Shown in pieces: positions 23,954-24,174 of a DNA stretch of 64,000 nt (position 1 is the first letter of the stretch; every line of letters starts with the position of its first letter). A program made the translations under genes and the position numbers. The stretch comes from Octopus vulgaris (lineage: Eukaryota). The notes beneath the pieces are model-generated. The model saw only the letters and a list, made by a program, of their open reading frames with translations. It did not search any database and was not told the DNA's origin. The DNA lies in assembly GCA_951406725.2 (NCBI GenBank), contig OX597827.1, forward strand, positions 29,078,001-29,142,000, in the 5' to 3' direction.

Positions 23954-24008
23954 GCAATTAAGGACAACTTCTTAAGAAGGAATCTTCGAAAATATTTATG
24001 ATACGTTC

Positions 24009-24057
24009 AGGCTTGCTGAAGAGTACATAAGTACGAAATCACAGGTGATACAAGTCT
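24009..24057 (+). ncRNA. Canonical type I hammerhead ribozyme
   Basis: AGGCTTG-CTGAAGA-GTAC-ATAA-GTAC-GAAA-TCAC-AG-GTGA-TA-CAAGTCT: complete core and three paired stems; predicted cleavage after A24050 (AUA triplet). Confidence 0.88.
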
Positions 24058-24174
24058 ATATTTTTTAAATGTCTTGCTTTGAAAGATTGCATTCGGTGGG
24101 ATTAGTAAAATGTTTTGGTAGAAATGACTTTTTGTCCCTCTTAGCGTGTGGCATCTATGTATAATAATGCCCTC

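Follow-up and report, generated by a model that had tools for sequence, protein, structure and literature searches.

Octopus vulgaris contig OX597827.1 contains, in the 64,000-nucleotide stretch analysed here (positions 29,078,001 to 29,142,000 of the forward strand; hereafter the window), a short island between two long (TA)n arrays, and this island carries a hammerhead ribozyme motif about 1 kb upstream of a LINE in the same orientation (hereafter LINE B). What kind of element is the island, how did it come to lie in a microsatellite, and does its ribozyme serve the LINE? Our reading, which we consider very probable, is that the island represents a two-armed insertion, half a unit long, of a hammerhead repeat that encodes no protein; this repeat is likely an animal non-LTR retrozyme, reverse-transcribed into (TA)n by a Penelope-like element (PLE). 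The motif consists of the following parts:

24009..24057, plus strand: type I hammerhead ribozyme motif, predicted cut after A24050 (AUA)
24009-24015 with 24051-24057, plus strand: stem I, 7 bp, one G.U
24016-24022, plus strand: catalytic core, full
24023-24034, plus strand: stem II, 4 bp, ATAA loop
24035-24038, plus strand: GAAA, core segment
24038-24049, plus strand: stem III, 4-5 bp
cut predicted after A24050, plus strand: cleavage triplet AUA

With its conserved core, three helices and open helix I, 24009-24057 is a real type I hammerhead motif, and the preliminary description of an intact canonical hammerhead holds for the core, for the stems of 7, 4 and 4-5 bp and for the predicted cut site after A24050. 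It is the sole match to our hammerhead descriptor on both strands of the window; shuffled windows gave 0 matches in 300 at the motif's stem lengths, and a looser hammerhead descriptor gave 0.03 matches per shuffled window. The Rfam model HH9 aligned to it weakly and below threshold (16.5 bits, E-value 0.14, gathering cutoff 52), and no hammerhead family is among the matches listed for the whole window (150 of 176), the listed ones being microsatellite-driven miRNA matches. A chance match to MIR7526 has its source in a long palindromic MITE-like element between TA runs at 39643-39922 of the window, and a similar element lies in locus L012. At 47001-47048 there is a minimal hammerhead-like motif whose stem III is palindromic and has two pairs; minimal hammerheads with such a stem III are of the kind needing dimers.

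Searched against its own genome, the 223-bp island gave 61 matches, the best of which are 93-99% identical over island positions 40-223, and its first 33 bases match family copies on the opposite strand. A 27-mer of the ribozyme variant in the window occurs exactly 15 times and a 22-mer of the unit has 154 exact matches in the genome. We infer, and do not count, a family of hundreds of copies, because the first-look candidates (2385 and 1867) include related families. Tandem copies repeat with a period of 457-460 nt and join head to tail without coding sequence between units; the unit has a GC content of 0.34 (34%), and its longest ATG ORF encodes 49 aa. The family is thereby non-coding, with a GC content under 50%, and its short tandem units each contain one type I hammerhead. 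For the counts below we merged 145 loci into 97 insertions, 39 of them obtained via similarity searches and 58 via the 22-mer list alone, the 22-mer loci fetched being the matches on the first contigs plus 40 further places, with 54 of the 154 matches outside those listed. Pieces of the family, mostly other variants, also occur in contigs of three presumed-RNA sequencing runs and one unclassified run; such contigs carry no information on ends, strand or circles. A related non-coding two-armed element in another locus (L270, 5236-5547) is 73-76% identical to unit positions 19-216 and lacks the ribozyme part, and a relative similar to it is found in locus L013. Two tandem 167-bp units at 43713-44044 of the window are unrelated to the retrozyme.

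The island and its setting are composed as follows, with unit positions counted from the cut site in the natural unit of locus L008:

23074..23953, no strand: left (TA)n array, 880 bp, insertion target
23954..23994, minus strand: inverted arm, ~41 nt, unit positions 256 back to ~218; its 3' end is site B, on the TA array
23993..24187, plus strand: sense arm, 195 nt, unit positions ~400 to 457, then 1 to 136; its 3' end is site A
24188..25034, no strand: right (TA)n array, 847 bp

Next to the junction, the inverted arm includes ~10 nt that derive from unit positions 156-165; the arms meet at a short microhomology, and the sense arm runs unbroken through the cleavage site. The island is thus a 5'-truncated, two-armed, about half-length copy of a dispersed 457-460-nt non-coding repeat. 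It had previously been taken for a young solo PLE repeat or retrozyme monomer, alone in a 220-bp island between ~0.9-kb (TA)n arrays and free of ORFs and TIRs. The arrays, the lack of any ATG ORF above 49 aa in the unit and a young PLE-related repeat or retrozyme all stand; however, the element is neither solo nor alone, since many copies 93-99% identical to it exist, nor a monomer, being about half a unit with two arms, and an inverted structure does exist in the form of the arm at 23954-23994. Li et al. (10.64898/2026.07.22.740005) take two consecutive ribozymes as the mark of an active copy, and the window copy has one ribozyme in about half a unit; it is therefore less likely to be an active copy, its family membership being unaffected. 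Since one ribozyme cannot release unit-length RNA, it is probably a dead-end copy.

The 97 insertions share a common footprint. A 3' end lies on TA-rich DNA in 94 of them, and the 146 TA-abutting 3' ends fall almost entirely at two places, site A (unit positions 124-142; 73 ends) and site B (244-266; 69 ends), with 4 elsewhere, so that 142 of the 146 belong to A or B. These ends are fixed at unit positions ~134 (A) and 256 (B), 122 nt apart. Two-armed insertions with both 3' ends pointing outward make up 59 of the 97, in a script-based count in which the two insertions of L147 enter as one and L169 and L189, each with further pieces besides its two arms, are treated as single-orientation. When the five two-armed insertions with one unclassified end are left out, 51 of the 54 classifiable ones pair A with B, two are B+B and one is A+A (p = 1.4e-12 versus independent choice). 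As the 58 insertions from the 22-mer list were chosen by a word at site B, the sample hides A+A and favours B+B; within the insertions selected by this word, B+B occurs in 0 of 37. The L270 relative suggests that what is conserved across families is the stretch surrounding sites A and B.

Taken together, the footprint has the features of Penelope-like insertion, namely, an inverted 5'-truncated copy, partial tandems, a tail at one end and a microsatellite target. PLEs are described as forming partial tandems, carrying an inverted 5' copy, favouring microsatellites and having a tail of 30-40 bp that is often confined to one end (PMC8557442). In vitro, a PLE protein has been shown to nick AT-rich DNA on both strands and to extend each of them, its RT using two internal RNA start sites that bound the tail, with uncleaved RNA as the main substrate (PMC11167929). 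The family resembles EN+ PLEs (PMC8557442, PMC11167929) in its 5' truncation, partial tandems, inverted 5' copy and tail at one end, as well as in its AT-rich or (TA)n targets and in having two internal RT starts with a hammerhead upstream of them. It differs from them in having no ORF, a tail of 122 nt versus 30-40 bp (PMC8557442) and a hammerhead with a 4-5-bp stem III, not the minimal form; furthermore, each arm here keeps strictly to one site, whereas for the PLE in vitro no difference in start site between strands was seen (PMC11167929). The window itself provides a comparator from a coding family:

37620..39599, no strand: two-armed protein-coding PLE fragment in (TA)n, 56-nt tail at one end only

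The family of this fragment has a 1312-aa frame and many protein-identical copies. Its two ends lie 56 nt apart, and A and B are paired in all 14 two-armed insertions with both ends classified, a count made up of 12 single loci including the window and two insertions each split over two loci, in which one B end is 4 nt longer, and from which two loci with an undetermined end were left out. We label the family a PLE because of the GIY-YIG match of a fragment (E-value 0.0011, under the cut-off), its structure and what we take to be RT motifs; its full ORF gave no Pfam family at an E-value of 0.1. It is very young and has a CX4CX2C motif before GIY-YIG, as in Neptune-type elements. A second young PLE family (L262-L269) has a 781-aa frame, a ~450-nt pLTR and 3' ends on (TA)n, and no hammerhead was seen in it. 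Downstream of one of its copies, at ~1271 of L263 on the minus strand, lies a complete type I hammerhead whose loop II is long and whose triplet is AUA; this hammerhead is absent from the 7 other 781-aa copies.

As judged from its sequence, the family has the testable features of metazoan non-LTR retrozymes. Like these elements as described in PMC7229834 and 10.64898/2026.07.22.740005, it has a type I hammerhead with full stems, a low-GC non-coding unit (34% here), tandem and dispersed copies, no LTR, and co-occurrence with PLEs. Its unit of 457-460 nt is slightly above the 150-450 bp given in the founding paper (PMC7229834) and within the 51-972 bp range of Li et al. (10.64898/2026.07.22.740005). 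In contrast to those elements, its insertions are short (at most 2.4 units), two-armed and (TA)n-targeted, the window copy is half a unit with one ribozyme, and no homologous pLTR was found in two PLE families and 30 GIY-YIG loci. The words 'inverted' and 'microsatellite' are absent from the main text of PMC7229834. Mobilisation of retrozymes by PLEs has been proposed in both papers, and Li et al. saw cleavage in one of nine tested retrozymes (10.64898/2026.07.22.740005), which counts against the retrozyme explanation.

In outline, tandem copies elsewhere would be transcribed, self-cleaved to unit length and probably circularised; a Penelope-type GIY-YIG/RT protein would nick both (TA)n strands, priming of the two cDNAs would take place at different sites, A for one and B for the other, on RNA continuous across the cleavage site, and microhomology would join the two cDNAs. 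In the window copy, both arms would have ended early, after ~195 and ~41 nt.

Does the ribozyme matter for this process? Among 109 motifs from the 97 insertions, the core is intact in 104 and the AUA triplet is present in 108, core conservation being inflated by the selection of motifs with at most 3 mismatches. The N7 base varies (T in 72, A in 30, G in 4 and C in 3), and loop II has at least four forms. Covariation keeps the stems while N7 and the loops vary: the closing (first) pair of stem II is A-U in at least 60 copies and G-C in most others, a two-sided change, and one pair of stem I is G.U, A-U, or U-A (9 copies). These compensatory changes point to selection on the hammerhead fold and to a ribozyme that has been kept; since they mark subfamilies, they represent few events and not 109.

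Predicted energies are less favourable. According to ViennaRNA, whose model leaves tertiary contacts outside, the ribozyme fold of the bare motif lies 1.3-1.7 kcal/mol above the ensemble and is not the minimum, and in the island context it lies 4.4-5.1 kcal/mol above the ensemble once 23993-24009 is included, because this segment is predicted to pair with the core and stem II:

23993..24032, plus strand: predicted competing hairpin, the upstream segment pairing with core and stem II (ViennaRNA prediction only)

The same ribozyme variant in full-length copies lies 2.0 kcal/mol above the ensemble (n = 3), compared with 4.6 in the window copy. For this truncated copy, the prediction is that the ribozyme fold faces competition from the upstream hairpin. 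Family copies in full context have a median of 4.4 kcal/mol (n = 64), and the ribozyme fold is not their predicted minimum either. Hence the earlier statement that the motif could fold as a monomer is right as to possibility, but the ViennaRNA minimum lies elsewhere (1.7 kcal/mol for the bare motif, 4.4-5.1 in context). As these energies ignore tertiary contacts, they call for caution in construct design and do not demonstrate inactivity.

What the template looked like can be read in part from the arms, which pass the cleavage site 116 times; 43 of the 168 aligned pieces are longer than one unit, the longest being 1089 nt. Only 2 of their 5' ends fall within 10 nt of the cut site, versus ~7 expected, a rate of 0.87 per 1000 nt at risk versus 3.08 overall; we therefore rejected a linear self-cleaved monomer as the main template, since its 5' ends would pile up at the cut site. 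Further downstream, 11-60 nt from the cut site, 5' ends are enriched (4.93 per 1000 nt at risk), perhaps because some templates were linear. We likewise rejected copying by fold-back of the first cDNA, since neither in the window copy nor in L012 does the first arm contain the second. Divergence within one insertion is 1.2-1.4%, and the median between insertions is 6.4-6.8% (first 39 insertions). However, in the same 39 insertions the closest of the other insertions is about equally similar: the divergence within an insertion is the smaller of the two in only 21 of the 49 tandem pairs and in only 24 of the 56 opposite-arm pairs, and therefore a circle is not proven. The continuity of the arms and the sharing of alleles fit either a circle or an uncleaved multimer and do not discriminate between them.

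An uncleaved linear multimer transcript of the same element, used by the same enzyme, is in fact the strongest competitor of the circle: the ribozyme would then have no role in insertion, and we regard this as a real possibility, somewhat short of an even chance. It has a precedent in the anole PLE, for which unprocessed RNA was the main substrate in vitro and ribozyme mutants inserted normally (PMC11167929), and the predicted fold disfavours cleavage. Most insertion-private alleles, moreover, are confined to one copy, with 18 tandem pairs sharing the allele versus 60 not sharing it (60/78) and 21 opposite-arm pairs sharing versus 80 not sharing (80/101). However, a private allele is common to the insertion's own copies in 17 of 68 insertions, and the compensatory changes argue that the ribozyme has been retained. 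As for a source, no array of more than 2.4 units exists among the 97 insertions, and just 16 of these have two tandem ribozymes. With arrays this short, repeated 5' truncation would shrink them unless they were regenerated.

The footprint could instead belong to an autonomous PLE; extreme 5' truncation would have left its orphan pLTR as the island, which would then not be a retrozyme replicating on its own. The two-armed footprint is indeed the same as that of coding PLEs, Xenopus retrozymes are related to pLTRs (10.64898/2026.07.22.740005), and the GIY-YIG candidates scored were 150 of 6136. However, the units join head to tail without coding sequence, the sequence upstream of the ribozyme is the same unit and not an endonuclease gene, and a tblastn search of the 97 insertions with the C-terminal part of the 1312-aa protein, the one PLE protein tested, gave no match; we consider an orphan pLTR unlikely. 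What counts against the retrozyme explanation itself is the lack of a parent in the sequences covered. No autonomous parent was found in the flanks of the 97 insertions, and no ORF with RT and GIY-YIG in the unit or beside these insertions. A matching pLTR was found neither in 30 loci of the 1312-aa family nor in 30 GIY-YIG loci (30 of 148 matches), where the sole match was a separate non-coding relative; 8 long copies of the 781-aa family showed no retrozyme homology, no hammerhead was found in either coding family, and the best match between the 1312-aa family and the retrozyme is 27 nt long (E-value 0.002), that is, no meaningful shared sequence. We therefore infer the type of mobilising protein from its footprint.

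It remains to consider the LINE downstream of the island:

25035..29025, plus strand: LINE B, independent neighbour, with a 35-nt 5' UTR remnant and an (AATC)n tail
ATG at 25070, plus strand: LINE B ORF1, CCCH/Torus zinc finger
25810-28932, plus strand: LINE B ORF2 frame, AP endonuclease and RT

Copies of LINE B are 99-100% identical. In 29 of 30 fetched copies the sequence continues upstream of the position corresponding to 25035, in most of them into an AT-rich repetitive UTR of 1-1.5 kb; the window copy is the one exception, ending at the TA array 35 nt ahead of the ATG. The window LINE B, previously described as intact with a leader of ~34 nt, therefore has open ORFs but is 5'-truncated, and its short leader is what is left of a lost 1-1.5-kb 5' UTR. 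In full-length copies (L106-L135) this UTR contains a variable number of internal repeats, with up to 20 matches to one motif, which are possibly a monomer-type promoter. A 5'-truncated sister of LINE B, 92.75% identical, lies at 34422-37581 on the minus strand of the window, and the two elements have their 3' ends turned towards one another, with a 5.4-kb (AT)n array (29025-34412) in between. A LINE B-like piece lies near 7 of the 97 retrozyme insertions, the window included, on either side and on either strand. The suggestion that the ribozyme cuts read-through transcripts and frees LINE B RNA, replacing the lost UTR, draws on the shared orientation, the ~1 kb distance and the open ORFs of a copy that lacks its own 5' UTR, but it is very improbable, since none of 20 other LINE B copies has a retrozyme within 4 kb upstream, the LINE B neighbours of the 7 insertions have no constant side or strand, the window copy is predicted to have a blocked fold (4.6 versus 2.0 kcal/mol in full context, n = 3), and the 3' cleavage product would lack a cap and carry ~850 nt of (UA)n ahead of the ATG. 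LINE B is most likely an unrelated neighbour that inserted independently into the same microsatellite, the two being paired because both use (TA)n.

The island itself is thus an ordinary dead-end copy, and the interest lies in the family, which provides genomic support for the mobilisation of animal retrozymes by PLEs, proposed in the papers cited above from co-occurrence and pLTR homology. A more specific model, which we put forward tentatively and with considerable doubt, is that, on a single retrozyme RNA circle, one Penelope-type complex starts cDNA synthesis from both strands of a break in (TA)n, one of its active sites being fixed at A and the other at B and each rolling past the ribozyme junction; as the mobilising PLE would share no sequence with the retrozyme and have no ribozyme of its own, the retrozyme would be a structural mimic and not the offspring of a pLTR. 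In a literature search of incomplete coverage, we found no paper that joins 'retrozyme' and 'twin priming' or gives a rule of one site per arm, and none that joins the octopus genome, Penelope and the hammerhead ribozyme. If the model is true, the tail at one end of PLEs would be explained as an obligatory rule of one site per strand. The rule of one start site per arm is countable (51/54 in the retrozyme; 14/14 in the coding PLE family) and open to testing in the existing in vitro PLE assay.
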